Positions 2,157 to 61,925 of a DNA stretch of 64,000 nt are shown in pieces. The translations under genes were made by a program, and so were the position numbers. Each line of letters begins with the position of its first letter. Position 1 is the stretch's first letter. The stretch is from a virus. The notes beneath the pieces were generated by a model, which was not told where the DNA came from, did not search any database, and saw only the letters and a program-made list of their open reading frames with translations. Location: the IMG/VR virus record IMGVR_UViG_3300045988_048622, positions 101,990 to 165,989 of that record, one strand, 5' to 3'.

Positions 2157-3250
2157 TATTCTAATGCAAAATTAAAGTTTTCATTTGAATCATCTAATTC
2201 TGTAATAGCATCTAGCTCCTGTTCTACTATAGAACTACTATCTTCTAATATATAATTCGGATTTGTATACCTTTCATAATCATAAATTTCATCGGGCTTT
2301 GGAAGCTCGTGGAACATATTAATCCAGCCGAAGAAGTTCACTCCAACCTCAACATCACAATCACCATATCGGTTCTTAAGTACCATTATGCTTCTAAAAT
2401 AAGAATTTAGATGCTCGATATTATAATGTTTATAAGTTTTCAATCCATCCCTGTGCGGATTATACAGTGCAATCATGATATTACAATCCTGCACAGTATT
2501 ACCAGAGTCTTTAGCATCATGAATAGTAAACGCACTCTTTCCCTGCTTAAACCTTTCAATGTTTCCTTGCTCTCTATTAGCTTGTTGTATTACTACAGGA
2601 CTAACGCCACACTTATCTCTAAAGAAGAGAAGATAGCTAGAAAGTAAGTCTATGTCAGGTTTAGTACCAACTAGACCAATATGGTCTACTACAATATTAT
2701 AGATAAGATTAGGATTATTAGGCTTATATAGAAGTCTTGTCTCACTTTCAGAAAAAGTTCCCATTTCTTCTAACCTAGTTTTCAAGATAGCATACACCTT
2801 TTTTGGAGACACTTTCTTGTCATAGATTTCCAGCTTTTTACTAATCTTATCTACCCAGGGCATACATTGCTTAACTAGATCATAATGTTCCTCTGACAAA
2901 ATATATTCCTTTTCTCTTGAAAGAATCTTCTTAAAAGATAATTGTATTCCATACGTTTCGAAGATGTATATGGATAATAGCTTAATATATAAGGCTACTT
3001 CTCCCATCTCTAGACTAAAATATAATACCTTAAAATCATCATCATCAAGATGTTCCATTAGTGGTCTATAAACATAAGCATAAAGGGCAAATGAAGTTTT
3101 ACCTGCACCAGAGTTAGATAGAATCAGTGTGTAGGTTTCCCTAGTAACTCCATCAATAATACTCTCTAGTTTAGGAAGCTTCATAGATATACCATGATTT
3201 AACCCCAATCTACCTCTATCAATTTCATAAAGAAGTTTCTCAGAAATCAT
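2156..3250 (-). CDS. DnaB-like/RecA-fold replicative helicase
   Basis: Walker A motif LSNSGAGKTSFAL; 364 aa; sits with other replication genes. Confidence 0.5.
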   Translation of the reverse strand: MISEKLLYEIDRGRLGLNHGISMKLPKLESIIDGVTRETYTLILSNSGAGKTSFALYAYVYRPLMEHLDDDDFKVLYFSLEMGEVALYIKLLSIYIFETYGIQLSFKKILSREKEYILSEEHYDLVKQCMPWVDKISKKLEIYDKKVSPKKVYAILKTRLEEMGTFSESETRLLYKPNNPNLIYNIVVDHIGLVGTKPDIDLLSSYLLFFRDKCGVSPVVIQQANREQGNIERFKQGKSAFTIHDAKDSGNTVQDCNIMIALYNPHRDGLKTYKHYNIEHLNSYFRSIMVLKNRYGDCDVEVGVNFFGWINMFHELPKPDEIYDYERYTNPNYILEDSSSIVEQELDAITELDDSNENFNFALE

Positions 3251-3852
3251 AGTAATCTCATGGAATCATAATTAACTCCGCCTTCATCTTTTAGTGCTTC
3301 AAGTTCTTCCCACTTATGGTCTATTACAAAGTTAGCGATAGTGGTACATAGAATATTATGCTCTCTAGCCCACTTTACTAGCTCTATAATTTGATTATGA
3401 ATTTCTGGCTTCCATCTGATGGTCCTACCATAAAACCTATAGAAGTCTTCGATGGTATCAAATTTCTTAGACACGCTTCTAAGACCCACTTGTGAATTAT
3501 TAACTATCCCGAATTGAGGATAGGTATCCCATAATTCCTTACCTAGCTCAAATGAGCATTTGTAGAAATCTTTAACCACATTTTTGTTTAGTGGAATATC
3601 TAAGGGATTAAATACACTTCCTTTTTCAGGAATTTTATAGGATTTATGAATAATTCCAGCATTGCGAAGCCCAGTTAATAGTTCTATTGTAAAACCACGA
3701 GCACATACTCTAGAGGAGAAATACTCATGGACAATTTCTGGTTCGTCGCCTTCTTGGGCAATAAGAATAATTTCTAACAACAACAACTCGCTCGGATTTA
3801 TACTATATTTCTCACAAAACAGAAGCTGTTGTTTCAATTCAAGATTTCTCAC
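3247..3852 (-). CDS. hypothetical protein
   Basis: 201-aa ORF, translationally coupled to the helicase gene. Confidence 0.4.
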   Translation of the reverse strand: MRNLELKQQLLFCEKYSINPSELLLLEIILIAQEGDEPEIVHEYFSSRVCARGFTIELLTGLRNAGIIHKSYKIPEKGSVFNPLDIPLNKNVVKDFYKCSFELGKELWDTYPQFGIVNNSQVGLRSVSKKFDTIEDFYRFYGRTIRWKPEIHNQIIELVKWAREHNILCTTIANFVIDHKWEELEALKDEGGVNYDSMRLL

Positions 3853-4109
3853 GTGTACAAATTAATAGATTTTCTACTAATCTATACACTAAGTCTAGTT
3901 TACCTGTTAAGGTGTTAAAACTTAGTTACGTGATAAACTTTAGTCCTCAACTTTCTCGTTGGCGGTTTCAAGAAGTACTGCATAATCCTTCTTTAATTCC
4001 TTCAACTCAGATGTCAGTTTACTAACTTTAGCTTCTAGCGACTTACATTTCTTAGTAAGTGCAGATTTCATCTCATTATACTCTTTCTTAGTGTAATAAG
4101 TTTCCATAA

Positions 4110-5387
4110 TTAAAAACGATAAGTAAAATTTTGTATTTTTTTCTTATAAGGCTCATAGGGTTCTCCCCTTAGAACTTTCATAAGATTCTCTTCATCAATA
4201 GTTATATAATTCACTCCTTCATGTGACTTCTTGTACCATTCACACTCTACAGTGTTTTCAATAACAATTGTGAACATTTCAGCATACTTAGTAGGTTCTT
4301 CCTTACGTATTACCCTACCAGTTCTCTGCTTACTCTTTATAGGACTGGAATCTAGACCAAGAACAATACCAACAGATAAACCCTTACAGTCCAAACCCTC
4401 ATTAGCTAGCTGGACGCTATTAAGCACTCCAGAGCTAAGTGTGGAAAATTCCTCTATAGTTATTCTGTTTTTCTTTTTACTCTCTCTTCCAGTATAAACG
4501 TATCCTATACCTATGCTTTCAGCCATTTTCACATTAGCTGAAAAGGTAATGATTTTCTTATCGGACCTATACTTGATTATCTCCTTGGCTATTTCTAGCT
4601 TCTTAGCATGATTGTATATGAACTTTTTCCTACTCTGCAAAGCTCTCATAAATGCCGTAGCATGAAAAGTAATTTCCTTGAAAACTTCTTTCCTATCCAG
4701 CTTGCTGTTTCGGTTACATAGTTCGTCCCTATACTTAGCCCTATTGACAAATCCGTTTGGACCTAACATACTCATAACTAAGTCAAAATCAAAGTTAAAA
4801 TATTCAAAATGTTGAACAAACTCCTTGTTATATTTTCTATACAAGTCTATGTCATCTACCGTTATTATAACTTGATATTCTGAAAAGTTTGATACCCAAC
4901 CATTGGCTTTGGCTACTTCTATAGAAATATTATCAATCTCTGGACAGTATTTTTCTATGATACTGTGCTTTCCATCGAGTCTCTCTATAGTAGCAGTTAA
5001 GCCAAGAATAAGTTTATATTTTACCTTAGTAAATACAGAAGAGAAAGTATCAGCAGGACATCTGTGAATTTCATCCAGAATTAGAAGGTCACAATCATAC
5101 CCGTTCTTTGCCATGGAATTAATAATTCCAACTTCGACATTCAATCCATATCCCAAACTGTCTAGGATTCCAGACCATTGTTCTTGCAAAGTAGAATTTG
5201 GAACGACTACTAATACCTTGATAGAAGGATACTTAGAAATAAGTTTTCCTATAATAATAGTAGCAACCCTAGTCTTTCCATACCCAGTACAAGCAACTAT
5301 TGTACCTCTTCCTTTGGACTTAATCCACTTTTTGACGGACTCCTCCTGCCGCTCATCACGAGTGATAGGAGTAAAAAGGTCCTTCAT
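4110..5387 (-). CDS. SF2 DEAD/DEAH-box DNA helicase
   Basis: Motif I CTGYGKT, motif II LILDEIHRC, and C-terminal helicase-domain motifs (QRTGRVIR). Confidence 0.75.
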   Translation of the reverse strand: MKDLFTPITRDERQEESVKKWIKSKGRGTIVACTGYGKTRVATIIIGKLISKYPSIKVLVVVPNSTLQEQWSGILDSLGYGLNVEVGIINSMAKNGYDCDLLILDEIHRCPADTFSSVFTKVKYKLILGLTATIERLDGKHSIIEKYCPEIDNISIEVAKANGWVSNFSEYQVIITVDDIDLYRKYNKEFVQHFEYFNFDFDLVMSMLGPNGFVNRAKYRDELCNRNSKLDRKEVFKEITFHATAFMRALQSRKKFIYNHAKKLEIAKEIIKYRSDKKIITFSANVKMAESIGIGYVYTGRESKKKNRITIEEFSTLSSGVLNSVQLANEGLDCKGLSVGIVLGLDSSPIKSKQRTGRVIRKEEPTKYAEMFTIVIENTVECEWYKKSHEGVNYITIDEENLMKVLRGEPYEPYKKKIQNFTYRF

Positions 5388-6250
5388 TAGTCTATATTTC
5401 TAGTGATGTCCCAACCTTTAAGTTCGGCAACTTTCTTAATTTCTTCCATTTTGTCCTTCCATTGTTTGGCTTGACTTTCACATTGATTCTGGAAGCGATA
5501 AAGAACCTTGCTCGACAACAGTCTCAACTGATCACTAGTTAAGTTAGCATATTTATCTCGTTTCAATCTACACATAGATCTAAACTCAGCATAACTTAAT
5601 CCAGTATCACAGATTTTCAGAGCTATAGAAGGATTCAAACGAAGTTCCTTACTTACTACTAACAGTCTGTTAACAGCTTTACCTGTCACTGGGTCTTTAC
5701 GATACAAGTCTTTCTGCATTTCTTGCTGTGTAAACCACAGTCCCATTTTTACAATGAAGTTAAGCGTCAAATGAGAGTTGTCAAACAATCCCAAGGAATC
5801 TAAACAAGCATCCATAACTAAACTTACTGGTACTTCTCTAAACTCCACAGGGATTCCATTAAGAATCTCTCCAATTGGATAGACCTTAATAGCCTCATTA
5901 GTTAACACTTCCTTATTGTTTTTGATAACAGCTTTCAAGTCTTCCAAACAACGTGTGTTTGTGTATTGCTTTTCAGCTCTAAGCCATCTAATAAGAAGCT
6001 CTGCACGACATCTTTGTATTTGGTCGGACACAATTCCGAGTAATGTTACACGACCCGGATTCTTGGTATCAGAGTTGTACAACATTTGTTCACAATGATT
6101 GTAGAATCGTCTCAGCTGGTCATAACCTGCGTCTACCAATTTAATTTCCTCCTGGACCCCATTTACCTTAGGTCCTTTCCATACATAGCTATTAACGTCG
6201 TTTGCTTTATCGCTCAAAGCCTCTCTCAGCTTATCTCCTAATACAGTCAT
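5387..6250 (-). CDS. hypothetical protein
   Basis: 287-aa ORF coupled to the helicase gene. Confidence 0.4.
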   Translation of the reverse strand: MTVLGDKLREALSDKANDVNSYVWKGPKVNGVQEEIKLVDAGYDQLRRFYNHCEQMLYNSDTKNPGRVTLLGIVSDQIQRCRAELLIRWLRAEKQYTNTRCLEDLKAVIKNNKEVLTNEAIKVYPIGEILNGIPVEFREVPVSLVMDACLDSLGLFDNSHLTLNFIVKMGLWFTQQEMQKDLYRKDPVTGKAVNRLLVVSKELRLNPSIALKICDTGLSYAEFRSMCRLKRDKYANLTSDQLRLLSSKVLYRFQNQCESQAKQWKDKMEEIKKVAELKGWDITRNID

Positions 6251-6294
6251 AAATTATTCTTTAAAAATACTTCATAGTTCATCTAATTTTAATG

Positions 6295-6618
6295 TTAATC
6301 TAATAATATTTGTCCACATTCTAGAGACGGTTTTTCATGAATAAATTTCAGGAAAATTATATTCGTCTCCTTATATGGAACGAAATCTGTACCATCGTAC
6401 CATTTATCGATGCCTTCTTCTACATATCTTAGAGATACATATCCAACATCACCTAATTTCATAGAACACTGGTTCCAATTCGGAAATCGAACACACATTA
6501 TGTCTTTGTAATCTAGATTATCATATTCTAGACGTTCAAAGACATAATTTGCATAACCCATTCCGTCCTCACATTCAGCTACAAACTTAACATGGTAAGT
6601 TACTTCTTTGGTTTCCAC
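6295..6618 (-). CDS. hypothetical protein
   Basis: 107-aa ORF. Confidence 0.35.
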   Translation of the reverse strand: METKEVTYHVKFVAECEDGMGYANYVFERLEYDNLDYKDIMCVRFPNWNQCSMKLGDVGYVSLRYVEEGIDKWYDGTDFVPYKETNIIFLKFIHEKPSLECGQILLD

Positions 6619-6809
6619 ACCTCAAAGGTATTAATATCCTCGAACTTCCTGCAACCATAAGAGGCAAAGTCCCCTTGTAGTTTGTCCATATTTGGCAAAC
6701 AGGGATAGTTCTTACACCTAGTACAGCTACGTTCAGGATGTTTATAGTGAAAACCATCTTTGTCCTTAAACATTACTTCAGTAATAGGCATAATAATATT
6801 AATACACAT
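6600..6809 (-). CDS. small zinc-ribbon protein
   Basis: CTRC...YPC cysteine pairs; 69 aa. Confidence 0.35.
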   Translation of the reverse strand: MCINIIMPITEVMFKDKDGFHYKHPERSCTRCKNYPCLPNMDKLQGDFASYGCRKFEDINTFEVWKPKK

Positions 6810-7147
6810 GAGCCAGCAGCTCCATATTTGATTACGTTCTGCTTCTTCTTTAAAGACTTATTAAGACCTTCAATTGATCTATTTTTATCTTCAATTATGT
6901 TTCCATAATACAGTAACTGGACTCTGCGAACAGAATCCGTTTTCTCCCAACTTTTGTTTATAAGTTCTAAATTAGTTATTTGACTCTTCAATAAAGGAAC
7001 AGTTTCGGACAATTTCTGATGTTCAGCAAATATCAGATTAGTTGTCTTTAACTGTTCGCCGGTTATTGTAACGGTCGATGTATTCTGAGAAAAAGCACAA
7101 ATTGATGCTATCAGAACTAGACATAATAGTAGACACTTTCTCATCAT
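6773..7147 (-). CDS. secreted/membrane protein
   Basis: N-terminal signal peptide (LLLCLVLIASICAFSQN) and a C-terminal hydrophobic segment. Confidence 0.4.
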   Translation of the reverse strand: MMRKCLLLCLVLIASICAFSQNTSTVTITGEQLKTTNLIFAEHQKLSETVPLLKSQITNLELINKSWEKTDSVRRVQLLYYGNIIEDKNRSIEGLNKSLKKKQNVIKYGAAGSCVLILLCLLLK

Positions 7148-7343
7148 ACTCCTTGTCTATATATTTAATTTTCTCAACAATGGAATCATTAACTATATAA
7201 ATGCTATCTCTAATGATAGAATCCCTCACAATCTCTTGCACATTAGGAGTGCTAGGATTACTATCTCTCTTAGGGATAGACAAATATATAATTATTAATC
7301 CCATTATGACAATTAAAATATAGCAAAACTTAGTCTTGTTCAT
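7038..7343 (-). CDS. small membrane protein
   Basis: N-terminal transmembrane helix; 101 aa. Confidence 0.3.
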   Translation of the reverse strand: MNKTKFCYILIVIMGLIIIYLSIPKRDSNPSTPNVQEIVRDSIIRDSIYIVNDSIVEKIKYIDKEYDEKVSTIMSSSDSINLCFFSEYIDRYNNRRTVKDN

Positions 7344-7920
7344 TTATCTCAACACCTGCAGCCTTAGCCTCCTCTACGAGCTTAACGCATCCGACTACAT
7401 CTACACCTTCCTTCATTGCCAGTTTCACAACAAGTTTCTCATTGTCAGAGAGACCTTCCACTTTAGCTTTTAGAGCTTGCTTTTTGTCAAAACGAGCTTT
7501 CATCTGATTGTAACCCTTGATAATTCTCTCTGGATTCTCTTTAAGGAAATTAACCTCCTGCTTCAAGAAAGCCTTTACCAAGGTCTTACTAGCTACTCCT
7601 CTATCTCTAGTATAGATAGTAGGACATTTAGGGTCGTGCAAAGCTTTATTGTAGGCATTGGCTTTACCTCTCTCCTTGTCAAACGTATCAGTCGGGTGAC
7701 ATACACTGATACCAACAGATACGACTCTGCAAACCTCTGCGTAATCTGGATCGTCCACACAGACAAATTCGTCCATTTCGTTTACCCAACCTACCGCAAG
7801 TTTGCAACCATCCTCACTCTCTTCTGGAGATTGGCTTAAAGCACACGCTACAATCTTGTGTTCCTCACCCTTAAAGTCTACAAACGAGTCAATCAAATAC
7901 TCAGCTACATCCTGTTTCAT
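7330..7920 (-). CDS. hypothetical protein
   Basis: 196-aa ORF. Confidence 0.4.
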   Translation of the reverse strand: MKQDVAEYLIDSFVDFKGEEHKIVACALSQSPEESEDGCKLAVGWVNEMDEFVCVDDPDYAEVCRVVSVGISVCHPTDTFDKERGKANAYNKALHDPKCPTIYTRDRGVASKTLVKAFLKQEVNFLKENPERIIKGYNQMKARFDKKQALKAKVEGLSDNEKLVVKLAMKEGVDVVGCVKLVEEAKAAGVEINEQD

Positions 7921-8188
7921 TTTCTACAATTTTAAAACCGTTATTAATTAAATATTCTTCTGGAGCAAACTGTAATTCGAAAAACCTATGCAGTGAATAG
8001 TTCTTTCTCTTTACAGAAATTAAATTTTTCTTTTTAAGTGTGATAGGTTTATCAGAAGAATAATACTTCTCTTCCATGAGGGCTGCTCCCCATCCCCACA
8101 TTTGATAAACCGAACTACAGTAGATAAACTTATCATGTGTATATACAATCTGTTTATCCTTCTCGTAAGTCTTCCGTAAGGTCGTCAT
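7901..8188 (-). CDS. hypothetical protein
   Basis: 95-aa ORF. Confidence 0.3.
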   Translation of the reverse strand: MTTLRKTYEKDKQIVYTHDKFIYCSSVYQMWGWGAALMEEKYYSSDKPITLKKKNLISVKRKNYSLHRFFELQFAPEEYLINNGFKIVENETGCS

Positions 8189-8627
8189 AAAATACTTGAA
8201 TAGTTCTAAAGATAAACTTATTCTTTGCTGAATTATAACATTCGTTCCAGCTACGATTTTTGTAGTGGTCTAGAATTTCGGAAGCTCTTACATTATAATA
8301 TATATTTCTGCAAAAGCTTTCGTCCTCATCACATTCAGCAGAATTTATTGTATAATTTCCGATGCCAATAGCGTAATGATAATGGCTTCCAGAAATTTCA
8401 CTAAATCTATCTTCTAACTCATAATCTTCGTATATTATTACTCTAAACTTGAATTTGTCCTTACTAAGAAGTTTTGCCAGGCAATATGCTACATAGCAGC
8501 ACCCTCCGGCATTAATATCGTACTCTTCATCTAGAAACCTACAAAGTTTATTCAGCCTCTCCGCTAGAATTTCTTGTACTTCCGTAGATTTGGAGTTCAA
8601 TCTCCTCCTTTGCTTTTTTAAACTCAT
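8154..8627 (-). CDS. hypothetical Cys-rich protein
   Basis: 157-aa ORF with a GGCCYVAYC cysteine cluster. Confidence 0.35.
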   Translation of the reverse strand: MSLKKQRRRLNSKSTEVQEILAERLNKLCRFLDEEYDINAGGCCYVAYCLAKLLSKDKFKFRVIIYEDYELEDRFSEISGSHYHYAIGIGNYTINSAECDEDESFCRNIYYNVRASEILDHYKNRSWNECYNSAKNKFIFRTIQVFYDDLTEDLREG

Positions 8628-8850
8628 CCAAGTACTTACCTAAAGTTACAACTTCATCTTTTCCGAATTTTCTTCTAACTGCATAGTGGATACATCTCTC
8701 CACTGCAGACTCTAGCAGGAATCCATATCCTACTACCTTGAACTCTTTTCTCGGATTTTTACCACCAATATCGCATAACAACTCCAAGTCGAAACGAGGA
8801 GATGAATCGTTAATTGGAGTTAACCTGTAAAATGGGCCTTCAATTACCAT
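8548..8850 (-). CDS. hypothetical protein
   Basis: 100-aa ORF. Confidence 0.3.
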   Translation of the reverse strand: MVIEGPFYRLTPINDSSPRFDLELLCDIGGKNPRKEFKVVGYGFLLESAVERCIHYAVRRKFGKDEVVTLGKYLDEFKKAKEEIELQIYGSTRNSSGEAE

Positions 8851-8865
8851 CTCTTTTTTGAATTA

Positions 8866-9678
8866 CTATCCACATACATCTATCACTGTTAAATTATTAT
8901 TACTAGGCTTATATCCGTAATCACAATACGAATTAGTTATTATAACACGGTCGAAATTGTTACATAGGTTTACCAAGCCTTTAATATTTACAGCATGACA
9001 AACCATAATCTCGTACTTAACATCAGGATATCTTTCTTTAAGAACTTTAAGTTCTCCAAGGAATGTTCCTCCAGCATCGCACAAATCATCAATAAAAGTA
9101 AAGGTCGGATAATAACAATTAACCTCTCTTCCAATGGAAAACTCCCTAATTTTACCAGTTTCCAAATCTCTCACCTTATTGAACACAATATGTCCCCAAT
9201 TATTAGAGAGAATTTTGTACCTTTGGTAAGCCCCAGCATCTGGGAATACGATATTAGATTGAATATCCAGATGCGATTCAAAGTTAAACTTTTGAGGATA
9301 ACATCTAGTTCCTAACAATCCCTTAGTTCTTTCCGAATGGGGTTCCAAAATCATAACATAACGATAGTTCATAGTATTCAAGATACTACAGACCACCTTT
9401 AGAGAAAATGGGCGGTTAAAGCTCATCACTCTATCCATACGCATGGACATTAGATAGGTAATAAACAAATCCCACTCAATCTCTTGTCTATCAAGAATGT
9501 CTCCGACTTGAGTTAGAATAAATAATTCTTCAGCAGAAGTAATTCTACATATAACCTTTACTGAATCTTTCCTATCAAATTCGTCCGGAAAACTTATCTG
9601 AGGTTCTCCGTCAGGAAATCTAGTGAGGTTATACTTAATCTCACTCTTGTCCAAGTTAATTAAGTTTAATAATTTCAT
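8866..9678 (-). CDS. PRPP-synthetase-family pyrophosphokinase (Adps-like ADP-ribose pyrophosphokinase candidate)
   Basis: Prs-like N-terminal FPDGE motif (Prs: FSDGE) and PRPP-loop motif DDLCDAGGT (Prs: DDMIDTGGT); adjacent to a NAMPT homolog. Confidence 0.6.
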   Translation of the reverse strand: MKLLNLINLDKSEIKYNLTRFPDGEPQISFPDEFDRKDSVKVICRITSAEELFILTQVGDILDRQEIEWDLFITYLMSMRMDRVMSFNRPFSLKVVCSILNTMNYRYVMILEPHSERTKGLLGTRCYPQKFNFESHLDIQSNIVFPDAGAYQRYKILSNNWGHIVFNKVRDLETGKIREFSIGREVNCYYPTFTFIDDLCDAGGTFLGELKVLKERYPDVKYEIMVCHAVNIKGLVNLCNNFDRVIITNSYCDYGYKPSNNNLTVIDVCG

Positions 9679-10138
9679 CTACAACATATTTTAAAATTTC
9701 GTAACTTTCTTCCAAGCCCGCTCTATCATCCAATAGGATATTATAATAAGGCTTATAAGATTTAGGTAATACAGAGCTTTGATTTATCTGTAGCTCTCCA
9801 TCTGGAGCTAATCCAAGCATATCATAGACTATGGTAGACTTTCTATGTGATTCACTAATATCTTCATCACAAGTAAATAATACCAGTTCAAATCCTAGTC
9901 TAGCACATCTTTTTAGCAGCTCAATAACACAACTATAGTCTCCTCCATTATTATGGTAGTCAAAAATAGTGTTATCATAATCGAAAGCGACTATTAGCTT
10001 TCCATATTTCTTGTACTCTTCTAATAGTCGCTTCTTGCAAGCCTCTTTTCCAAATGGATGGTTAAAACTTTCCATAAAGCCCTTCATTAATCCGCTGTCT
10101 AATTTCTTTAAGAGTGTACTCCTTTTTAAGGACGCCAT
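9656..10138 (-). CDS. HAD-superfamily phosphatase
   Basis: HAD motif I FDYDNT (DxDxT) and motif IV-like LLDDRAG; sits between the Prs-like and NAMPT-like genes. Confidence 0.5.
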   Translation of the reverse strand: MASLKRSTLLKKLDSGLMKGFMESFNHPFGKEACKKRLLEEYKKYGKLIVAFDYDNTIFDYHNNGGDYSCVIELLKRCARLGFELVLFTCDEDISESHRKSTIVYDMLGLAPDGELQINQSSVLPKSYKPYYNILLDDRAGLEESYEILKYVVDEIIKLN

Positions 10139-11624
10139 CTTCGAACACAGTCTCTAAGCAGCCTCCGCTTTCTACCTCAGGAGTTACCTGGTCTTCAGCA
10201 TAGTAAACGCCATTAACGTCCTGATAGACAGCAATTAGACCTTTAAGAGAATTTTTAGTTCCATCATCTGTTTTAGGATGTTTGAATATTTCTTTCAATT
10301 CTCCATTAATTACACAAGCAGTAGCCTTAATTGCAAATCCTAAGCTATCTCTACTTGCATACTGATATGAAAATGAACCTACTCCTAGAACAAGATTGCA
10401 AGCTGCCATATGAGCATTCTCAAGTCTCATGTAGATTTGTTTCTGACGTTCTAGTGTAATAGAATCGCCATATAACAAGCCTATTTTTGTACTAGGATAA
10501 CGATAATCCCTAGAAGTAGTATTCCATCCAAAAATCTTACCAAGCATATAATAAGCACCGTAGTATTGACCTTCTGAAACTTCTACATACTCAGCATCAT
10601 CGTTAAATGGAGCGTAGCAACAATAATACTTACCCTCTTTCATTCTAGTATGGAAGTGAGGATTAGTTCTTAAACCACAAATAATATCAACAGGGTCTCC
10701 GCTATCTGGACGAATAACTACACGTCCATCACGAGCCATAATATCCTTCTTTAATTTGGGAAGGAAGTTTTCAATAACATTCCAGAAGTCCCAAGTATCA
10801 GAAACTATAGAAACGAACCCAGATGGATACAATTCGTTAATTAATCGCTTAAAGGTTTGAAGTTCATCCTCTTCTCCACCAGCACACATTACAGAATGTT
10901 CTGTAGCTGGAACAGTAGCAGCAATTAATTCATTGTCAGAATTTGCACCATAATATTCTTCTAGAGCAGCAATAGCTGGAATGGTCTCACTCCCAACGAA
11001 CGAGGTCATATGTGCCATGCCAGAAATGATAGCAGCCTCTAAACCAGCCATTCCTCTCATAGAGAAGTCATGACACAAGAAATCCAGATTTACATCTTCT
11101 GGAAATCCAGTATGTACTGCGTGTCTTTTAAGTTCCTTCTTATAGAGTCTTGCTCTAGTAGCAGAAGTGCAAGGCATCCACAGAGTACAACTAATTAAAG
11201 TCTCTAAATAATTAGTTAACCAGAAGAACTCTGACTTTGTATTAGTAATAGTCATCATGGGAACTCTGATAGGGCATACTGAACCTTCTGGCAACGCTTT
11301 AATGCGAATGGGAAGATAACCTAAATCATACAAGGCTTCAATATGTTTATATCCTACGGACTCAATTCCCACGAAGTTATGAACTCTTCGATAAAACATT
11401 TCTACAGCTTTCTCTTTGGGCAATCCAAAGAAATTCTTGTTAAATTCGTCAATCAAATACCTTTTAATTAAGTACTGGATTCCGAATACTACAGAACCTT
11501 CAGTGGCTTCTGGAAAGTATTTGTTACTTCTTGGAGTCCAATTACTGTAAACTTGTTCAGTACCTTCTGGGTACATTCTGTGGTGGCCCAATTTATAGCC
11601 ATCTGTTGCATTAATTATTTCCAT
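10062..11624 (-). CDS. nicotinamide phosphoribosyltransferase homolog (NAMPT/NadV-like; Namat candidate)
   Basis: Matches NAMPT along its length: ATDGYKLGHH, ALPEGSV, FWLTNYLET, HDFSMRG, VPATEHSVM, VSIVSDTWDFWN, IRPDSGDP. Confidence 0.75.
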   Translation of the reverse strand: MEIINATDGYKLGHHRMYPEGTEQVYSNWTPRSNKYFPEATEGSVVFGIQYLIKRYLIDEFNKNFFGLPKEKAVEMFYRRVHNFVGIESVGYKHIEALYDLGYLPIRIKALPEGSVCPIRVPMMTITNTKSEFFWLTNYLETLISCTLWMPCTSATRARLYKKELKRHAVHTGFPEDVNLDFLCHDFSMRGMAGLEAAIISGMAHMTSFVGSETIPAIAALEEYYGANSDNELIAATVPATEHSVMCAGGEEDELQTFKRLINELYPSGFVSIVSDTWDFWNVIENFLPKLKKDIMARDGRVVIRPDSGDPVDIICGLRTNPHFHTRMKEGKYYCCYAPFNDDAEYVEVSEGQYYGAYYMLGKIFGWNTTSRDYRYPSTKIGLLYGDSITLERQKQIYMRLENAHMAACNLVLGVGSFSYQYASRDSLGFAIKATACVINGELKEIFKHPKTDDGTKNSLKGLIAVYQDVNGVYYAEDQVTPEVESGGCLETVFEDGVLKKEYTLKEIRQRINEGLYGKF

Positions 11625-11637: not shown

Positions 11638-12162
11638 TTAATAACTAATTGTTAATAAACTTTTCATGTCTTTACCACTAGCTAAATTCTTAAAACACTG
11701 AGTGATAAATTCCTTCGTTTCTGGGTGGATAGCCCTAGGAGAACTTATATACTTAATCCACCAGTTATATTCTCCTTGAAAACTATTACCATTGTATACT
11801 TTGCCGGCAGCTAGATAATCGCATACCAATTCCAGAGCATACTCTTTAGGCATCTTCACTGGAACGCCTCCAATGTCTAGCTTAGTTACCCAGTACTCGT
11901 AATGATGTGGATTTCTTCCTCTGTGATGTAAATAAGACCTAGAATATCCTAGAATTTCTTTTTCCTTGTTTAAGGGAGATGTGTTATCATCGTAAAATTT
12001 TACAGAACGAGAGAACTCATACCATCCGAATTTAGATAAGTCGTGCAAGATACCCTGTTTGTATAGACCTAACTGAAAACAGTAATAAGCTACCCAAAAC
12101 TTATGTCTAAGTATTCGCCTAAGATGTTTCAGTGTTATACACATACATTTAAGAATTTCCAT
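11638..12162 (-). CDS. hypothetical protein with HD-like His/Asp motifs
   Basis: Contains LHDLSKF and HHRGRNPHH; adjacent to the NAD module. Confidence 0.3.
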   Translation of the reverse strand: MEILKCMCITLKHLRRILRHKFWVAYYCFQLGLYKQGILHDLSKFGWYEFSRSVKFYDDNTSPLNKEKEILGYSRSYLHHRGRNPHHYEYWVTKLDIGGVPVKMPKEYALELVCDYLAAGKVYNGNSFQGEYNWWIKYISSPRAIHPETKEFITQCFKNLASGKDMKSLLTISY

Positions 12163-12485
12163 ATCTTCTTCACTATTCTAGTTAGAAAATTATTTCCTCT
12201 TAGATTGAACTTATGTGTATATCCAGACAACTTGTCTGGATTCCACACAGCATGAACTATATAGAATAAATATCCTACTGTGTATAGCATAATGTTCAGT
12301 ACTGGGATAAATCCTAGGATTAGTATTACTAAAACTAGCCACACTGGAACTTTAAGGTCATAGTCTTCTTCTTCTATAAGTGCCACACTTCTGCTATACC
12401 CATTGTAATAAACGGTTACATGGGTATCTTTCAAGATAAGCACCGTGATGATTACCATCACAGTGCATATTACTAGATACATCAT
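12135..12485 (-). CDS. small multi-pass membrane protein
   Basis: Hydrophobic helices; directly upstream of an SPFH lipoprotein gene. Confidence 0.4.
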   Translation of the reverse strand: MMYLVICTVMVIITVLILKDTHVTVYYNGYSRSVALIEEEDYDLKVPVWLVLVILILGFIPVLNIMLYTVGYLFYIVHAVWNPDKLSGYTHKFNLRGNNFLTRIVKKIWKFLNVCV

Positions 12486-13309
12486 TTGTTATTAGCTACG
12501 TCTTTAAATAAGGTGGGAACCTGACCATAAGTAGGAAGTTTTCCATCCCACTTCTTAATCATATCCTGCTGAACTATGAGAACTGACAAAGATGCTGAAA
12601 TCTTTCTATTATATTCAGCTTCTGCATCACCCTTAATCTTAAGAGCTTCTGCCTCTCCTTGTGCAGCTGCTACTTTCTTTTTAGCTTCTGCCTCAATAGT
12701 CTTAACTTCATTCTCTGCCTTCAAAGCTTGTTGAATTGCAGCATTCTTAGCATCAATAGAATTGACTAGCGTCTGTGGATATTGAAGACCAGAAGTCATT
12801 TGTTCAAGCTGAAAATTCTCAGCCAAGAGTTCCTTTGACAGTCTATCTTCTATAGACTTCTCAAACTCCTCACGTTTACTTACTAGTTCATCAGTAGTAT
12901 AGTTATTCAGCTGAATGCGAAAAGCATTCTTTACGTAATTATACAAAGTAGTGTTAATTACCTCTACAATATCTTCCTTTCTATACTTCTTAAATACTTC
13001 TGGTGATTTCCCGTCAACAATCTTCAAAGAAATTGTAGGGTCTACAGTAAATGATGATCCATCTTTAGCATTAATACTGAAAGGAGGATAGTCCACAGTC
13101 TGTACGAATGTAGGATATTCATATACAGCCGTAGTAACAGGATTGTACCATACCGCACCAGTAACAAGAGACACATCGTCTACTCCTTTACCATCTCCGT
13201 ATAGATTTACCTTGATGCCTTCATAACCAGCATCAATTCTCTCATAGCCACAACTAGATAAGCCAAACACTAAAGTTAATACACACAAAATCTTAATAAT
13301 TGTCTTCAT
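12482..13309 (-). CDS. SPFH/band-7 (HflC-like) lipoprotein
   Basis: Lipoprotein signal peptide with lipobox (VFGLSSCG) followed by a band-7-like domain and a coiled-coil tail (AQGEAEALKIKGDAEAEYNRKI). Confidence 0.55.
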   Translation of the reverse strand: MKTIIKILCVLTLVFGLSSCGYERIDAGYEGIKVNLYGDGKGVDDVSLVTGAVWYNPVTTAVYEYPTFVQTVDYPPFSINAKDGSSFTVDPTISLKIVDGKSPEVFKKYRKEDIVEVINTTLYNYVKNAFRIQLNNYTTDELVSKREEFEKSIEDRLSKELLAENFQLEQMTSGLQYPQTLVNSIDAKNAAIQQALKAENEVKTIEAEAKKKVAAAQGEAEALKIKGDAEAEYNRKISASLSVLIVQQDMIKKWDGKLPTYGQVPTLFKDVANNK

Positions 13310-13746: not shown

Positions 13747-14763
13747 TCATTGTTCGGAAATTATTACGATACGATTAAATTCATTATCTCCAAATTCAGT
13801 GGTAATTCCGCATCCCTTAACAACCAATTTATCCTCTGGAGCACCATAGCTAATCAGAGCCTTCTTCATAGATTCTGCCCTAGCTACAGCAAGGTTATTA
13901 TTAAACTCTTCTGGACCTTCTTCCGAAGCATATCCCTCAATCACATAAGTTTTTCCACTATTAGAAATATAGGAAGCTAGTTCTGAGACAGCCACATTGG
14001 AAGTTTTAGAAATCTCTGAAGAATTTTGAAGGAATTGAATTTTTGGAGTCAAAAGCTCTACTTTAGTAATTTCGATTGTGTCCGTCTTAACAATTTCTAT
14101 TGGTTTACGAGCCATAAGTTCCTCATTCTTGGCTCTCAACTCATTAATAGAAGCGTTTAGGCTTTCAACCTCGGCATCACTATACAACTTCATAATTGGA
14201 AAGTCCCCTTTGCTAGACTTAAAGCGATAGGTAGCACCAATATAGACGTTAAACTCATGATTCAGAGGAGAAGTCTTGGGAAGTAACATATACTCAGGAG
14301 TAACATTTAATGCCCATCTATTAGAGATATTAAAGTTACATCTAACGGCTCCACGGGCGGATACATTATTATAGACATCTCCATAAGTATGATACCAACC
14401 AGCACCAACGATTAGTATAGGCTCAAACAGACGCCTATCTCCGTTATATCCACATATCAGGTTAGTAAGATTGGTAGTAACGTTAGCTGTCAAATTATGT
14501 GAATCAAAGAATGTTTTATTTCCTTGGTTCATTCCAGCCATCATGTCTAACTCCAAGCCAAAGATAGGAGTAATCTCCTTACCAATAGCAATGTTTACTA
14601 GTACATCATTTGGTTCTGCCCAACTTCTATGGTTATCCCAAATAGTAGTTCCAACATTACCAGAAATATACCAGTTATCCTTCATACTTCCAGTCTCAAC
14701 AACTTGTGCGCTAGCAAATGCACACATCAAACACAAACAAATAATACTAAAAATTCTCTTCAT
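13747..14763 (-). CDS. OmpA-family outer-membrane protein (beta-barrel plus OmpA_C peptidoglycan-binding domain)
   Basis: Signal peptide, aromatic-rich beta-strand N-domain, and C-terminal OmpA-like motif NNNLAVARAESMKKALISYG. Confidence 0.55.
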   Translation of the reverse strand: MKRIFSIICLCLMCAFASAQVVETGSMKDNWYISGNVGTTIWDNHRSWAEPNDVLVNIAIGKEITPIFGLELDMMAGMNQGNKTFFDSHNLTANVTTNLTNLICGYNGDRRLFEPILIVGAGWYHTYGDVYNNVSARGAVRCNFNISNRWALNVTPEYMLLPKTSPLNHEFNVYIGATYRFKSSKGDFPIMKLYSDAEVESLNASINELRAKNEELMARKPIEIVKTDTIEITKVELLTPKIQFLQNSSEISKTSNVAVSELASYISNSGKTYVIEGYASEEGPEEFNNNLAVARAESMKKALISYGAPEDKLVVKGCGITTEFGDNEFNRIVIISEQ

Positions 14764-25833: not shown

Positions 25834-26469
25834 TTATTTCCAAATAAATTTATATGCAGTTTTCAATTTCCCTTTTACACATAAACTAATCTTCTAGCGA
25901 ACACCTCCATTATAAGTTTTAGCATAACCATTGTCTACTAACCAGTGTGCAGCATCGGCTATACTGTTCCAAGTCCTGATAAAGTTATTATTTAAATCAT
26001 ACTGAGATATTGATACAGGTTGCTTGCAACTTCCCAAATAAAATTTGTTCTTTGGTATATTGTTTATATTTATTACTTTAGAAACTGTATCAACAGAACA
26101 TTGCATTTTGGCGGAAACTTCAATCATTGTCATTCCGCTAGTATATAAAGATATTATTTCTTTATAATCGAATAAGATAGCTCCATCGCCTCCCATAGTA
26201 GCATTATAGCCATTTGAGTATGTGTCTAGCTTATCTATAAATTGAATTTCATAAGAAGCTAATTCCTCATCATCACATTCATACAGCTACTCAACTATGA
26301 AGTTCTCGATCCCATACTTATTCATGGCATCATATAAAGGTCTTTTGTTGCATCTTTCTTTCTAAAAGTCATAACAATGTTCCTTCCAGCGCTCTTCTAT
26401 AGAAGTAGTAGTTTTTCCTACGTATCGCTTGCTATTAATTAAATTTGTAATGCAATAAATATATGCCAT
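25834..26469 (-). CDS. GIY-YIG homing endonuclease (I-TevI/Seg-like), read with TAG as a sense codon
   Basis: N-terminal GIY-YIG motif (YIYCITN...RYVGKTT...ERWKEH...YGIENF). Three in-frame TAGs join ORF-track fragments 26362..26625 and 25894..26196 into one 211-aa protein starting MAYIYCITN. Confidence 0.65.
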
Positions 26470-26489
26470 ATTTTTAAATTTAAAATTAG

Positions 26490-26574
26490 AATCCGTGGAG
26501 GGATTCGAACCCTCATTAAAGATTTCTCTTTTCAGTTTTGCAGACTGATGGCTAAACCATTCACCCACACGGAT
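26490..26574 (-). tRNA. type II (Ser-like body) tRNA with anticodon GCA (nominally Cys)
   Basis: Acceptor ATCCGTG/CACGGAT, anticodon stem TCAGT/ACTGA with loop CTGCAAA, long variable arm (AAAGA-GAA-TCTTT), T-arm GAGGGTTCGAATCCCTC; body resembles the tRNA-Ser(GCT) at 30864-30951. Confidence 0.45.
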
Positions 26575-26575
26575 A

Positions 26576-26878
26576 TTAAGATTTAAAGTACTTCTCTCTA
26601 AATGGGATATTAAATAATGAATCATTAATATCCTTATCAGTTATTTCCCTACCTAGAGCCTTCTCCGCACATTCGCTACAGATAAACACATGGTGGTCTG
26701 GATAATAATCTTTACCTCCCCCTTTGTAATAAGAGGAGAATTTCTTTGCAGCTTCTTTTTCAAAATTGGTTAGCTTAAAGTAATTTATTATCTTGTTCCA
26801 AACCTCATCAATAAACATTGGAGAGTTATGGTCTCCATAATAAAATTCTTTATTACATACTGTACACTTTATTTTCAT
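26576..26878 (-). CDS. hypothetical Cys-rich protein
   Basis: 100 aa with CTVC...CSEC cysteine pairs. Confidence 0.3.
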   Translation of the reverse strand: MKIKCTVCNKEFYYGDHNSPMFIDEVWNKIINYFKLTNFEKEAAKKFSSYYKGGGKDYYPDHHVFICSECAEKALGREITDKDINDSLFNIPFREKYFKS

Positions 26879-27080: not shown

Positions 27081-27425
27081 TTACTCAGATAACAGCTCCT
27101 GCATATCAATCTCGCCAGCTACCTTAGTAATAGCGATTTTGAACGGATTCCCCTTGATTTTGTCAAACAAGTGAGCATCACGAGTTTCTTTCACCTCGTC
27201 AGGAACATTAAATTTCTTCTTGCCTTTCTCTATAGTTTTCCATGTAACCACCTCGCAGCGAGTTATCTCGTAAACGCTGTCGTTTCGGTCAACGTAAACC
27301 TTGAAAAAGTTCTTTTTGTAGTTGAACTTCTCAACCCTTTTGAAATTCTTGGGATGAGCGTGGAACTTCAAGTCGCATTTTCCATTAGCTAAGAAAATCA
27401 ATTCTGCCATAATAATACTCCGCAT
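27081..27425 (-). CDS. hypothetical protein
   Basis: 114-aa ORF. Confidence 0.35.
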   Translation of the reverse strand: MRSIIMAELIFLANGKCDLKFHAHPKNFKRVEKFNYKKNFFKVYVDRNDSVYEITRCEVVTWKTIEKGKKKFNVPDEVKETRDAHLFDKIKGNPFKIAITKVAGEIDMQELLSE

Positions 27426-27546
27426 AGTCGGAGATTCAAAGTTAAACTATGTTAATTCCAGTCTTTCGTCTGGCACTCCACCTCGTTTTAACCAATAGCT
27501 ACTATTATTCACTATTTGAGCTAAGCTCTAAACTGGGATAAAGGTA

Positions 27547-27897
27547 TTAGTCTATGTAAATAAACGGTTTTCCAAATTCTTCCATGAAGGACTCAAACCA
27601 TCCCTCCATTTCTTCGTCACTATCAAAATAGATAGATTCATCATGTCTTTTAGAGAACTCTAAAATGATATGAGGTTTCTGATATACTATTCCATCCTTG
27701 TAGAAGGCATATCTCTTCTCTAAAGATGAAATCATTTTTTCTTCCGTATAAGTTCCAAAACATGGGTCCCAATAATCTCGATGTATTTTCCAAAACAAGA
27801 ATCGGTAATCGTCCACATAACGTACCCAATCAGGATGCTTTCTAGTTTTAAAAACTAAAACTCTCTTTACTAAACTTCCATTAATATACTTGTCCAT
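27547..27897 (-). CDS. hypothetical protein
   Basis: 116-aa ORF. Confidence 0.35.
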   Translation of the reverse strand: MDKYINGSLVKRVLVFKTRKHPDWVRYVDDYRFLFWKIHRDYWDPCFGTYTEEKMISSLEKRYAFYKDGIVYQKPHIILEFSKRHDESIYFDSDEEMEGWFESFMEEFGKPFIYID

Positions 27898-42120: not shown

Positions 42121-42190
42121 GTTCCCCACTCCGGGTTTGAACCAGAATCTCCTTCTTTAGAGGAAGGCGCAATGCATTATACTAATGGGG
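42121..42190 (-). tRNA. amber-suppressor tRNA (anticodon CTA), copy 2 with a different body
   Basis: Acceptor TCCCCAT/GTGGGGA, anticodon stem CCTTC/GAAGG with loop CTCTAAA (C34 U35 A36 = CUA), T-arm TCTGGTTCAAACCCGGA; lies in an ORF-free 1.2 kb region. Confidence 0.55.
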
Positions 42191-43033
42191 AAAACTCTAT
42201 CTTGGCAACTAGTATAAGATAGGGAGTTATTCAACTACTTAATTCTCAGTTTCCTATACTGAAAATCAAATAGCTACGTTACTAACGTTCACTAAGAATA
42301 TAGGTAGCTAATCCATATTCTTGCGACTGAGTTCGAGGTAGGAAATATACCCTTATGAGGTATCCTCTTATCAGCTAGCCTTATTAATCTAGCGGCTTAT
42401 ACCAGGCAACTTCTAATACAATTGCATAACATATAAAAATATGACATACATGGTCTACTGGTATGTCAGCAGTACTTTCATATATTGCTATAAGTGACCA
42501 ATCTTATAGCTCAATCCTCCTTACTCATGAGATAAGTTTGCGAACTCTCATTTTCATTAATAGCAGTTATTTTCGGATATTGGGCTATCTGCGTAACCCC
42601 GCTTTTTGTTGCCTTTTTATAGGCTAATGTTAGAGTAAATAATCATTGTAGTATGAGTTATAAAACTCGTCCTACTGGCGATTTTTTGAAAACTGGAAAA
42701 AGTAGGAAAATCTGCCTTTGAGTTTGTGGAACATTCTTCTCCTTACTTGCCCATATTTTCTTTTGTGAAACTGAATTTTCAAAAGAAATGATAGTCTTTC
42801 CTATCAGCCAGACATAAAAACTAAAACTACTACAAAAGTTAACTCGGTTTTGATTTTTTTTTGTTTTGTTGTTGATTTCTCCGTTGACCAATGATGGAGT
42901 TCATATGGGCATTTTATTTATACTCGTAATACCTTAGAGTTGCACGTTTGACTTATTTTAAATCTCGTTGTGCGCTGAGATTGACTCTAAGATTCGGTCA
43001 CACTCTCACTTATTTATACACGAGAGAGTCGTG

Positions 43034-44583: not shown

Positions 44584-44655
44584 TGCCCTATGGTGTAATG
44601 GTCAGCACAGATGACTCTAAATCATTTAGTCTGGGTTCGAATCCTAGTAGGGCAA
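44584..44655 (+). tRNA. amber-suppressor tRNA (anticodon CTA), tRNA-Gln-derived
   Basis: Acceptor TGCCCTA/TAGGGCA, D-arm TGGTGTAATGGT nearly identical to the tRNA-Gln(TTG) at 30391-30462, anticodon stem GATGA/TCATT with loop CTCTAAA (CUA), T-arm CTGGGTTCGAATCCTAG. Confidence 0.75.
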
Positions 44656-44672
44656 CGCCAAAATTAATAGTT

Positions 44673-50019: not shown

Positions 50020-50021
50020 TT

Positions 50022-54751: not shown

Positions 54752-54752
54752 T

Positions 54753-55487: not shown

Positions 55488-55497
55488 TTATTATAAT

Positions 55498-56226: not shown

Positions 56227-56381
56227 AAGAAAGGCTATTAAAAGGTATGAGGATTTCCTTAAAAGGGTTAGAAAGGGATATAGACCAGATTATTAGGATA
56301 TTTTGAATCTAATTTGTTTTATTAACCTACCCGTAAAATTAGATAATCACGAATTTATTAAATAGCAATTATTGAATCATA

Positions 56382-59809: not shown

Positions 59810-59814
59810 ACAAT

Positions 59815-60027: not shown

Positions 60028-60028
60028 T

Positions 60029-61849: not shown

Positions 61850-61925
61850 GATAAAATATAGAAAATCGATTTAGATATAAATCGTAGGATATTACTTCTA
61901 AAAACCGTTGATTGGCAAAAAAGAA

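Follow-up and report, generated by a model that had tools for sequence, protein, structure and literature searches.

Three overlapping genes of a crAss-like phage, encoding a Namat-like enzyme, a small HAD-superfamily phosphatase and an Adps-like enzyme, probably constitute an NAD+ reconstitution operon in which the phosphatase feeds the pathway. They were found in a window of 64,000 nucleotides, the whole stretch of DNA analysed here, taken from IMG/VR record IMGVR_UViG_3300045988_048622. The core pathway is already known. It consists of Adps and Namat, is called NARP1 and has been described in phages Bas63, SPbetaL1 and ICP1 (Osterman et al., bioRxiv 10.1101/2024.02.11.579819). What is new is the HAD phosphatase, apparently a third member of the NARP1 operon that has not been described before.

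Organization of the gene cluster

The three open reading frames of the original prediction are all present at the positions given there, on the minus strand (Table 1). The Adps and Namat genes share a strand and only the HAD gene, which overlaps both, separates them. The overlap between the Namat stop and the HAD start is 26 nt, that between the HAD stop and the Adps start 23 nt. The HAD frame is open over 9656-10138 and can be read back to 10138, but the start is placed at 10087 because public gene calls of 99%-identical homologues give a protein of 143 residues. No terminator-like site was found on the coding strand inside the triad. A scan for sigma-70 promoters returned 18 sites against a mean of 22 in shuffled sequence, and is uninformative on operon boundaries. 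The locus lies in a crAss-like gut phage, within the block of early/middle genes that use the standard code, and the NARP1 genes are set here, in a phage, amid genes for replication and nucleotide metabolism.

Table 1. The triad and the adjoining gene, in order of transcription
Gene	Position	Strand	Product and place
DUF5662 protein	11638-12162	-	174 aa, directly upstream of the triad
NAMPT-like / Namat-like	10062-11624	-	520 aa, first of the triad
Cap-less HAD-superfamily phosphatase	9656-10087	-	143 aa, second of the triad
Prs-like / Adps-like ADP-ribose pyrophosphokinase	8866-9678	-	270 aa, third of the triad

An HD-like protein had been noted next door. The neighbour exists and is a DUF5662 protein; its HD character is weakly supported, and it is possibly an HD-type metal-dependent phosphohydrolase. 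We considered this protein as a fourth pathway member and do not count it as core. The gene is rare in reference phages, ten records of which carry DUF5662, and adjoins the triad only in related crAss-like contigs. With its position kept in close relatives only, it probably does not belong to the core.

The Prs-like protein

The two motifs that had suggested a Prs-family enzyme, RFPDGE and FIDDLCDAGGT, are both found, and the protein matches phrog_619, 'ribose-phosphate pyrophosphokinase', with an E value of 2e-52. It fails every NCBIfam Prs equivalog and curated Prs threshold, scoring 56.6 bits against TIGR01251 where the cut-off is 113, and a Pfam search gave no match, to the Prs domain or otherwise. 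The marks of a canonical Prs (a DDMIDTGGT loop, a KRR flexible loop and a full C-terminus) are absent. The loop reads DDLCDAGGT, the hairpin (NKVRDLETGKI) is of the Adps type and the C-terminus is short, with 63 residues past the PP loop as against 83-85 in Prs.

Published signatures of Adps are the PP loop, Lys185 and the loss of C-terminal helices (PMC13586617). In the window protein D197, D198, Leu, C200 and D201 form a PP loop of the Adps-type DDxCD pattern, F206 is also present, PHS occupies residues 113-115, and K168 aligns with the catalytic lysine, K185, of ICP1. Aligned against the ICP1 Adps, for which the reference sequence was taken from the phage record, residues R87, H121, D161, K185, D212, D213 and D216 correspond to R80, H114, D147, K168, D197, D198 and D201. 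ICP1 F92 is replaced by methionine, as it is in the FelixO1 Adps. In a neighbour-joining tree, the basal split of which carries no bootstrap value and the Prs references of which form a narrow outgroup (Gammaproteobacteria only, at least 80% identical to E. coli Prs), the protein groups with the verified Adps of ICP1 and with that of FelixO1, and a long branch separates it from the eight Prs. A search of our PDB copy for a solved Adps structure found none, the best match being a Sulfolobus Prs (E 1e-7). Judged by sequence, the assignment of this protein to the Adps clade, and not to the bona fide PRPP synthetases, is supported.

The NAMPT-like protein

Pfam matches to NAMPT_N and NAPRTase agree with the description of this protein as a full-length NAMPT homologue. 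It matches phrog_448 (E 7e-182) and passes the NCBIfam PRK09198 cut-off. The best match to a solved structure is with 9w5x/9w5w, at 502 bits, more than twice the score of any Nampt structure (about 220 for human NAMPT); by residue numbering 9w5x/9w5w is the SPbetaL1 Namat. Matches from phages split into one group above 277 bits and another below 215 bits, and in a neighbour-joining tree the protein sits with NARP1-linked proteins.

Namats are recognized by a selectivity clamp, in which SCH follows GSX-phi-X-phi-X-phi-TRD with aromatic X and the third residue of SCL is R, K or Y (PMC12774641). Here SCH is GSFSYQYASRD (residues 416-426), with serine in place of the threonine, and SCL is SNKY (residues 33-36), with lysine third and tyrosine fourth as in Bas63-type Namats. 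In three phage Nampts (KP15, AS-gz and BUCT-ZZ01) the clamp is replaced by GGGLLQ and a short beta1-beta2 loop. The catalytic histidine (in ATEHS), R305 and the GDS motif are kept. Comparison with F189, R192, D215, R306, D308 and the phospho-histidine of the SPbetaL1 enzyme reveals conservation throughout except at D215, the equivalent of which is glutamate in the window Namat (E214) and in every crAss-like homologue. Asp215 of SPbetaL1 contacts nicotinamide, and the D215A change lowers activity about 8-fold. Since glutamate replaces this nicotinamide-contacting residue, the activity of the crAss-like Namats may be tuned differently. An insertion of about 35 residues after residue 317 is present in the Namat of the window's lineage. 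Placement of the protein in the Namat clade is supported, again from its sequence.

The original prediction of an Adps plus Namat pair, of NARP1 type, is supported. The first protein, below all Prs cut-offs, has Adps-type residues and grouping; the second has the Namat clamp and lies closest to the SPbetaL1 Namat. For both genes the outcome is the opposite of a housekeeping clade devoid of signature residues.

The HAD phosphatase

The HAD protein displays four catalytic motifs (DxDxT/V, S/T, K and DD, motif I being DYDNT) on a Rossmannoid fold, and these motifs are intact throughout. A Pfam search returned no family and no Macro match. The PHROG label of the family, 'phosphoheptose isomerase', is rejected as a mislabel, motifs and fold being those of a phosphatase. 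The nearest characterised structural relative is the 3'-phosphatase of T4 Pnkp; Pnkp, unlike the window protein, is fused to a kinase, and it acts on nucleic-acid ends. Also among the closest known proteins is BT_0820 (PDB 2obb), which has no assigned function and shares only some 21% identity. Among 51 longer representatives of the family we found no fusion to Adps or Namat.

Linkage of the phosphatase to Adps and Namat

The Namat-HAD-Adps triad also occurs in DAC17, and the triad is found in three other contig families with HAD identities of 48-55%. When IMG/VR loci were located through the HAD protein alone, 74 out of 79 proved to have the two NARP1 genes no more than 5 kb away, a raw figure that overstates independence, the linked loci being mostly from related crAss-like phages. 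Clustered at 60% identity, 12 of the 16 HAD groups are linked to both genes and two more to one; in clusters L084 and L089 neither gene lies within 5 kb of the HAD gene. Adps alone adjoins HAD in Lak-B1, and Namat alone does so in PTm5. At least four gene orders exist (Namat-HAD-Adps, Adps-HAD-Namat, Adps-Namat-HAD and HAD-Adps-Namat), and this variation points to selection on linkage rather than an inherited order.

The carriers comprise the abundant crAss-like phages of the human gut, the Prevotella Lak megaphages and phages of Bacillus, Aeromonas and Tenacibaculum. That several phage groups, unrelated to one another, keep the phosphatase gene syntenic with NARP1 genes bears out the earlier suggestion that the phosphatase may be an accessory step. 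An Adps homologue is present in 1531 phage records, this HAD in 85. Neither the window nor the HAD loci yielded an Adpp-like Macro sequence in a tblastn search of low sensitivity with two Adpp queries. Our search of the literature for a connection between NARP1 and a HAD phosphatase yielded only the Metis paper, in which the HAD is a component of host defence. The published survey of genes next to NARP1 was confined to proteins of three Macro Pfam families and may have missed a family that, like this HAD, has no Pfam model.

Comparison with known systems

In common with NARP1, the window combines in one operon a Prs homologue of the Adps clade and a NAMPT homologue of the Namat clade, which carry the residues published for catalysis and selectivity, the Asp215 position excepted. 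It differs in having a third gene between the two, with Namat first and Adps last, and crAss-like Namats differ in having glutamate at the nicotinamide-contacting aspartate and serine for threonine in SCH.

The phosphatase had been described as lying outside the known pathway. This holds for a HAD-type enzyme, but NARP1-AP, in which the operon of Vibrio phage Gary is arranged Adps, Macro-domain phosphatase Adpp, Namat, was described in January 2026 (bioRxiv 10.64898/2026.01.28.702374). Both systems embed a small phosphatase gene in a NARP1 operon, here between Namat and Adps, and some HAD loci have the order Adps-phosphatase-Namat, the slot that Adpp occupies in Gary. The enzyme is different: a cap-less HAD, with an aspartyl-phosphate intermediate and Mg2+, not a Poa1p-like Macro domain.

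RyDEP-NARP1 of mycobacteriophage DyoEdafos has a glycosidase, RyDEP, acting on cyclic ADPR signals (bioRxiv 10.64898/2026.05.28.727677). The proposed logic is alike, in that an accessory enzyme of a NARP1 operon turns a NAD+-derived molecule into linear ADPR, but RyDEP is no phosphatase and is unrelated to the HAD protein in sequence or fold. NARP2 (Nampt with Nmnat/Nudix, Vibrio phage KVP40) also restores NAD+ with a NAMPT-family enzyme and nicotinamide. Its Nampts, however, are of the GGGLLQ type with a short beta1-beta2 loop and are paired with an adenylyltransferase, not with Adps; no NARP2-type adenylyltransferase is found among the direct neighbours of the triad.

A proposed pathway

How might the three enzymes work together? 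Host NADase effectors cut NAD+ to nicotinamide and ADP-ribose, as is established in other hosts. By homology, the Adps-like enzyme would pyrophosphorylate ADPR at its 1''-OH with the beta,gamma-pyrophosphate of ATP, forming ADPR-PP and leaving AMP, and the Namat-like enzyme would then combine ADPR-PP with nicotinamide to form NAD+ and PPi. Conserved synteny and analogy suggest that the HAD protein may be a Mg2+-dependent phosphomonoesterase that feeds this pathway, stripping the phosphate off a phosphorylated ADPR that Adps could not use and so supplying ADPR. The leading candidate substrate is ADPR-1''-phosphate, the product of NAD+ phosphorylases with a RES domain, of which aRES is one. The substrate could also be 2'-phospho-ADPR, from cleavage of NADP+, or a compound that arises when ADPR-cyclic-phosphate, a by-product of the pathway itself, breaks down. 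On this reading the operon would be a functional analogue of NARP1-AP in which an enzyme of unrelated fold stands in for the Macro phosphatase Adpp.

There is precedent for such a role. Accessory enzymes of NARP1 operons that give linear ADPR have been shown twice, with Adpp (10.64898/2026.01.28.702374) and RyDEP (10.64898/2026.05.28.727677). The phosphorylase aRES is predicted in Bacteroides thetaiotaomicron, Prevotella, Bacillus cereus, Aeromonas and Tenacibaculum, and no phage of Bacillus or Bacteroides figures in the list of NARP1 operons with a Macro gene (both 10.64898/2026.01.28.702374). The HAD gene is carried by phages whose hosts belong to the genera with predicted aRES.

Alternative explanations

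The NARP1 core may be real and the HAD enzyme a phosphatase of nucleotides or nucleic-acid ends, for example a 5'(3')-deoxyribonucleotidase, that does not act on ADPR derivatives. We consider this possible though rather doubtful. The closest characterised structural relatives of the protein do act on nucleic-acid 3'-phosphates or deoxynucleotides, not on ADPR derivatives. Some family members are fused to, or precede, nucleoside 2-deoxyribosyltransferase-like domains, and such partners suggest that the substrates of the family may be nucleotides in general. The enzyme might then partner N-glycosidases of the nucleoside 2-deoxyribosyltransferase fold, or erase a nucleotide alarm signal much as MisB of Metis removes m6dAMP; it would then accompany NARP1 while serving a second, distinct purpose in counter-defence or in the nucleotide pool. 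MisB, however, is a capped PF13419 HAD, whereas the window family is cap-less with no Pfam match, and a separate function leaves unexplained the adjacency to Adps and Namat, the overlapping frames and the recurrence in several phage groups and gene orders.

It is unlikely, in our estimation, that the operon is a second, independently evolved phosphatase-extended NARP1 whose substrate is not ADPR-1''-phosphate but another phosphorylated product of NAD(P)+ breakdown. Examples would be 2'-phospho-ADPR from NADP+, or what is released by some NAD+-cleaving defence of Bacteroidales and Bacillus yet to be discovered.

That the HAD enzyme aids NARP1 without feeding in a substrate from another defence appears improbable. 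Its task would be to drive the reactions onward or dispose of their products: it might hydrolyse pyrophosphate or AMP, for example, or recycle the ADPR-phosphate that forms as ADPR-PP decays to ADPR-cyclic-phosphate. The synteny fits such a helper as well as it does the supply of ADPR to Adps, and some HAD enzymes are pyrophosphatases. The spontaneous decay of ADPR-PP to ADPR-cyclic-phosphate has been reported (10.1101/2024.02.11.579819). On the other hand, most NARP1 operons manage without such a helper (1531 Adps against 85 HAD records), the hosts already own a pyrophosphatase, and a HAD monoesterase alone would be unable to open a cyclic phosphate.

Ordinary salvage, the alternative raised in the original prediction, in which a true PRPP synthetase and a true NadV make NMN and the phosphatase is an unrelated passenger, is rejected as very improbable: both proteins do fall within the Prs and NAMPT superfamilies, one passes the PRK09198 cut-off, and Namats keep some PRPP-dependent NMN synthesis in vitro (PMC12774641), but it is contradicted by the curated HMM cut-offs, by the signature residues and by the clades in which the proteins fall, and the NMN route needs an NMN adenylyltransferase, which is not seen among the direct neighbours.

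Significance

NAD+ depletion is among the commonest anti-phage strategies of bacteria, and the rebuilding of NAD+ by phages is a young field (2024-2026). NARP1-AP, whose Macro-domain enzyme is unrelated, is the one published case of NARP1 extended by a phosphatase. The input of NARP1 has so far been shown to be widened by accessory enzymes of two kinds; a third, of another fold, would if true represent convergent evolution. It would also provide a handle on the NAD+-degrading defences of Bacteroidales, about which little is known experimentally. Should the substrate be another phosphorylated NAD(P)+ product, the HAD gene would point to an undescribed chemistry of host defence.

Gene cluster and genomic setting

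The DUF5662, NAMPT-like, HAD phosphatase and Prs-like proteins are encoded by four successive minus-strand ORFs, the last three of which we call the triad. Overlaps of 26 nucleotides (NAMPT-like and HAD genes) and 23 nucleotides (HAD and Prs-like genes) join the triad, and no terminator-like sites were found on the coding strand inside the cluster. Helicases, a DnaB-like helicase and an RNase H are neighbours, which marks this as a standard-code block of replication and nucleotide metabolism. The window matches only two phages at nucleotide level, DAC15 and DAC17 of Bacteroides (Crassvirales), and there only along part of the NAMPT-like gene (72%). DAC17 has the identical order of triad genes, and identical copies of the cluster occur in IMG/VR contigs of 95-188 kb. 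From these nearest relatives, rather than a hallmark-gene phylogeny, we infer that the window is crAss-like phage DNA. Just upstream lie genes for an SPFH/Band_7 lipoprotein and for a protein that weakly matches phage membrane proteins (PHROGs 'moron'); other crAss-like contigs also have a Band_7 gene alongside the triad, but on the opposite side.

Elsewhere, outside the standard-code block that holds the cluster, one plus-strand block is almost devoid of ORFs of at least 120 aa in the standard code, and TAG readthrough opens frames of 435-792 codons there. Two minus-strand segments are grouped with it, and tRNAs with anticodon CTA, reading TAG, lie either side of the strand switch. The pattern suggests that late genes are TAG-recoded, a phenomenon known from crAss-like phages. 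The 21 tRNA genes, a large set for a phage, are dispersed among short ORFs, almost all of them on the minus strand.

Coordinates of features in the window and in loci retrieved through HAD homologues (L numbers)
Sequence	Feature	Position	Strand	Size or remark
Window	Prs-like (Adps-like) protein	8866-9678	-	270 aa
Window	Small HAD phosphatase	ORF 9656-10138	-	143 aa in 99%-identical public gene calls, giving a start at 10087
Window	NAMPT-like (Namat-like) protein	10062-11624	-	520 aa
Window	DUF5662 protein	11638-12162	-	174 aa
Window	SPFH/Band_7 lipoprotein and membrane-protein-like genes	12482-13309 and 13747-14763	-	
Window	tRNA genes	18402-44656		21 genes
Window	Segments grouped with the putative TAG-recoded block	25834-26640 and 27081-27731	-	
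Window	tRNA, anticodon CTA	42121-42191	-	
Window	tRNA, anticodon CTA	44584-44656	+	
Window	Putative TAG-recoded block	50004-63438	+	
L055	Kinase-nucleotidase fusion	3970-5001		343 aa
L083	Split Namat gene	5587-8860		421-aa ORF inserted
L086	Isochorismatase-family gene	5398-5931		
L087	Apparently split Adps gene	2977-4963		
L090	Deoxyribosyltransferase-like gene	5441-5917		
L175	Prevotella phage Lak-B1 locus	MK250020.1 409457-425864		548-kb megaphage

Identity of the Prs-like and NAMPT-like proteins

The original prediction was of a NARP1-like pair, in which Adps converts ADPR and ATP to ADPR-PP and Namat combines this with nicotinamide to form NAD+; a canonical Prs and NadV pair was the named alternative. 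The FPDGE and DDLCDAGGT motifs that it cited are present in the Prs-like protein. A Pfam search with this protein gave nothing at E < 0.01; its TIGR01251 score is 56.6 bits (cut-off 113), and it falls far under every Prs equivalog. The closest solved structure is an archaeal Prs (E 1e-7), with E. coli Prs at 2e-4. Using tblastn, homologues were found in 1531 records of the reference phage collection, including Felixounaviruses, the genus of Bas63 (up to E 7e-19), and Vibrio phage ICP1 (6e-11). Activity and structure are reported for ICP1 Adps (PMC13586617); alignment reveals Arg80, His114, Asp147, Lys168, Asp197, Asp198 and Asp201 in common, with Lys168 of the window protein at the position of the ICP1 catalytic Lys185.

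Comparison with eight bacterial Prs identifies several features shared by the window and phage proteins: Cys in the DDxCD of the PP loop (DDMID in Prs), Phe rather than Leu in the adenine lid, a K-x-R-D-x-x-T-G hairpin in place of DKRRPRANV, and P-H-S in place of L-H-A. The tail after the PP loop is 63 residues as opposed to 83-85 in Prs, in line with a report that Adps has lost two helices at the C-terminus (PMC13586617). In a neighbour-joining tree, where the Prs references are all gammaproteobacterial and the basal split carries no bootstrap value, the protein groups with ICP1 and FelixO1 Adps on a long branch from Prs. The failed curated thresholds, the signature residues and the grouping with verified Adps argue for Adps rather than Prs.

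The NAMPT-like protein passes NCBIfam PRK09198, although NCBIfam models do not distinguish Namat from Nampt. Among solved structures 9w5x/9w5w rank first with 502 bits, human NAMPT entries scoring about 220; the residue numbering (D13, Y15, R40, F392, Y396, T398-D400) identifies 9w5x/9w5w as the SPbetaL1 Namat of PMC12774641. Matches occur in 2046 phage records, and those listed form two groups, the upper (at least 34% identity, >277 bits) including Staphylococcus, Bacillus, ICP1 and Felixounavirus sequences, the lower (<31%, <215 bits) the T4-like and cyanophage Nampts. The Namat signature is GS-X-phi-X-phi-X-phi-TRD with X aromatic (PMC12774641). The window protein has GSFSYQYASRD at this clamp, whilst three phage Nampts, one adjoining a NadM/Nudix gene, have GGGLLQ-x-V-[TN]-RD. 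Its selectivity loop, S-N-K-Y, is longer than that of Nampts and fits the rule that, with Lys in third position, stacking falls to the residue after it (PMC12774641). The catalytic His and the equivalents of SPbetaL1 Arg306, Asp308 and Gly360-Asp361 are kept, and the nicotinamide-contacting Asp215 is Glu (window residue 214) in every crAss-like Namat. Structure score, clamp and loop indicate Namat rather than Nampt or NadV. Placement in housekeeping clades lacking signature residues was looked for with both proteins and the results favour NARP1, which is very likely the core of the cluster. The window lineage also has a Namat insertion of about 35 residues (approximately 318-352, LRTNPHF...YCCYAPF); the insert that FelixO1-type Namats have at this site is longer.

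The HAD phosphatase and its linkage to NARP1

Asp36, Asp38, Thr40, Lys112, Asp120 and Asp121 are invariant across 44 homologues and the motif II Thr is conserved. By alignment this is the full HAD catalytic set, kept in family members of identity as low as 29%. The HAD protein stays below threshold for every Pfam and NCBIfam model; PF00702 is touched by 18 of the 44 members, with E values no better than about 0.02. The HAD motifs contradict the PHROG annotation as 'phosphoheptose isomerase'. The family is small: when 1.84 billion cluster representatives were searched with a profile, 985 members were found at E <= 0.001.

The triad also occurs in three contig families whose HAD proteins share 48-55% identity with that of the window. 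Searching IMG/VR with nothing but the HAD protein gave 79 loci, and in 74 of them Adps and Namat both lie within 5 kb of the HAD gene. The median gap between aligned segments, in these and the reference loci fetched alongside, is negative, i.e. an overlap. Among 16 HAD clusters at 60% identity, 12 are linked to both genes, two to one and two to neither. The order is Namat-HAD-Adps in crAss-like phages, Adps-HAD-Namat in eight loci (Aeromonas phage PhAER-3 among them), Adps-Namat-HAD in Bacillus phage Eyuki (Herelleviridae), HAD-Adps-Namat in L086, HAD-Adps in Prevotella phage Lak-B1 and HAD-Namat in Tenacibaculum phage PTm5. That linkage outlasts rearrangement across unrelated phages is our main argument that the HAD enzyme works with NARP1, and a functional tie is probable. 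In the reference collection the HAD gene occurs in 85 records compared to 1531 with an Adps homologue.

Several loci are unusual. In L086 the HAD and Adps genes are separated by an isochorismatase-family (nicotinamidase-like) gene, and the clamp of the Namat there is altered, reading GSFSMQCVEEDGVLKPFTRD, with Ala also standing at the position of Asp215. The Namat gene of L083 is split by an ORF with no significant Pfam match, which we suspect to be a homing-endonuclease insertion; the Adps gene of L087 appears split as well. In L055 the Namat gene and that of the small HAD protein flank one for a P-loop kinase fused to an NT5C-type HAD nucleotidase, which gives this operon two HAD enzymes. 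No Namat was found within 8 kb of the Lak-B1 HAD-Adps pair.

Possible function of the HAD enzyme

The RES-domain enzyme aRES converts NAD+ and phosphate to ADPR-1''-phosphate, which NARP1 cannot use, and the Macro-domain phosphatase Adpp, located between Adps and Namat in some phages, regenerates ADPR (10.64898/2026.01.28.702374). The NARP1 of mycobacteriophage DyoEdafos has an inserted glycosidase that linearises cyclic ADPR signals (10.64898/2026.05.28.727677). By analogy with these two accessory enzymes, the HAD enzyme may remove phosphate from phospho-ADPR species; that ADPR-1''-phosphate is its specific substrate is a tentative and somewhat doubtful proposal. Predictions of aRES cover the host genera of HAD-carrying phages, Bacillus and Bacteroides phages are absent from the published list of Macro-containing NARP1 operons (10.64898/2026.01.28.702374), and two Adpp queries gave no match in the window or HAD loci. 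These observations are consistent with a phospho-ADPR role, though none is decisive.

The substrate could instead be a nucleotide. Enzymes with the closest characterised folds have nucleic-acid ends or deoxynucleotides as substrates. Of the longer family members, 20 were tested and four proved to be fused to domains of nucleoside 2-deoxyribosyltransferase type (PF15891, or PF14359 of the same clan). Some HAD genes, moreover, have no NARP1 neighbours. Fusion to, or succession by, such domains (PF15891; DUF4406) recurs in L090, where the gene follows HAD, and in the longer proteins P0324, P0357, P0313 and P0247, and may indicate that the two act together on N-glycosides of nucleotides.

With respect to the proposed tie to NARP1, a literature search found no paper linking a HAD phosphatase to the pathway. 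The survey of NARP1 neighbours retained only matches to three Macro Pfam families (10.64898/2026.01.28.702374), so a HAD protein outside any Pfam family may have gone unreported. The NARP1 pathway, reported from 4.3% of phage genomes (10.1101/2024.02.11.579819), is already known; the variant extended by a HAD enzyme is new and directly testable.
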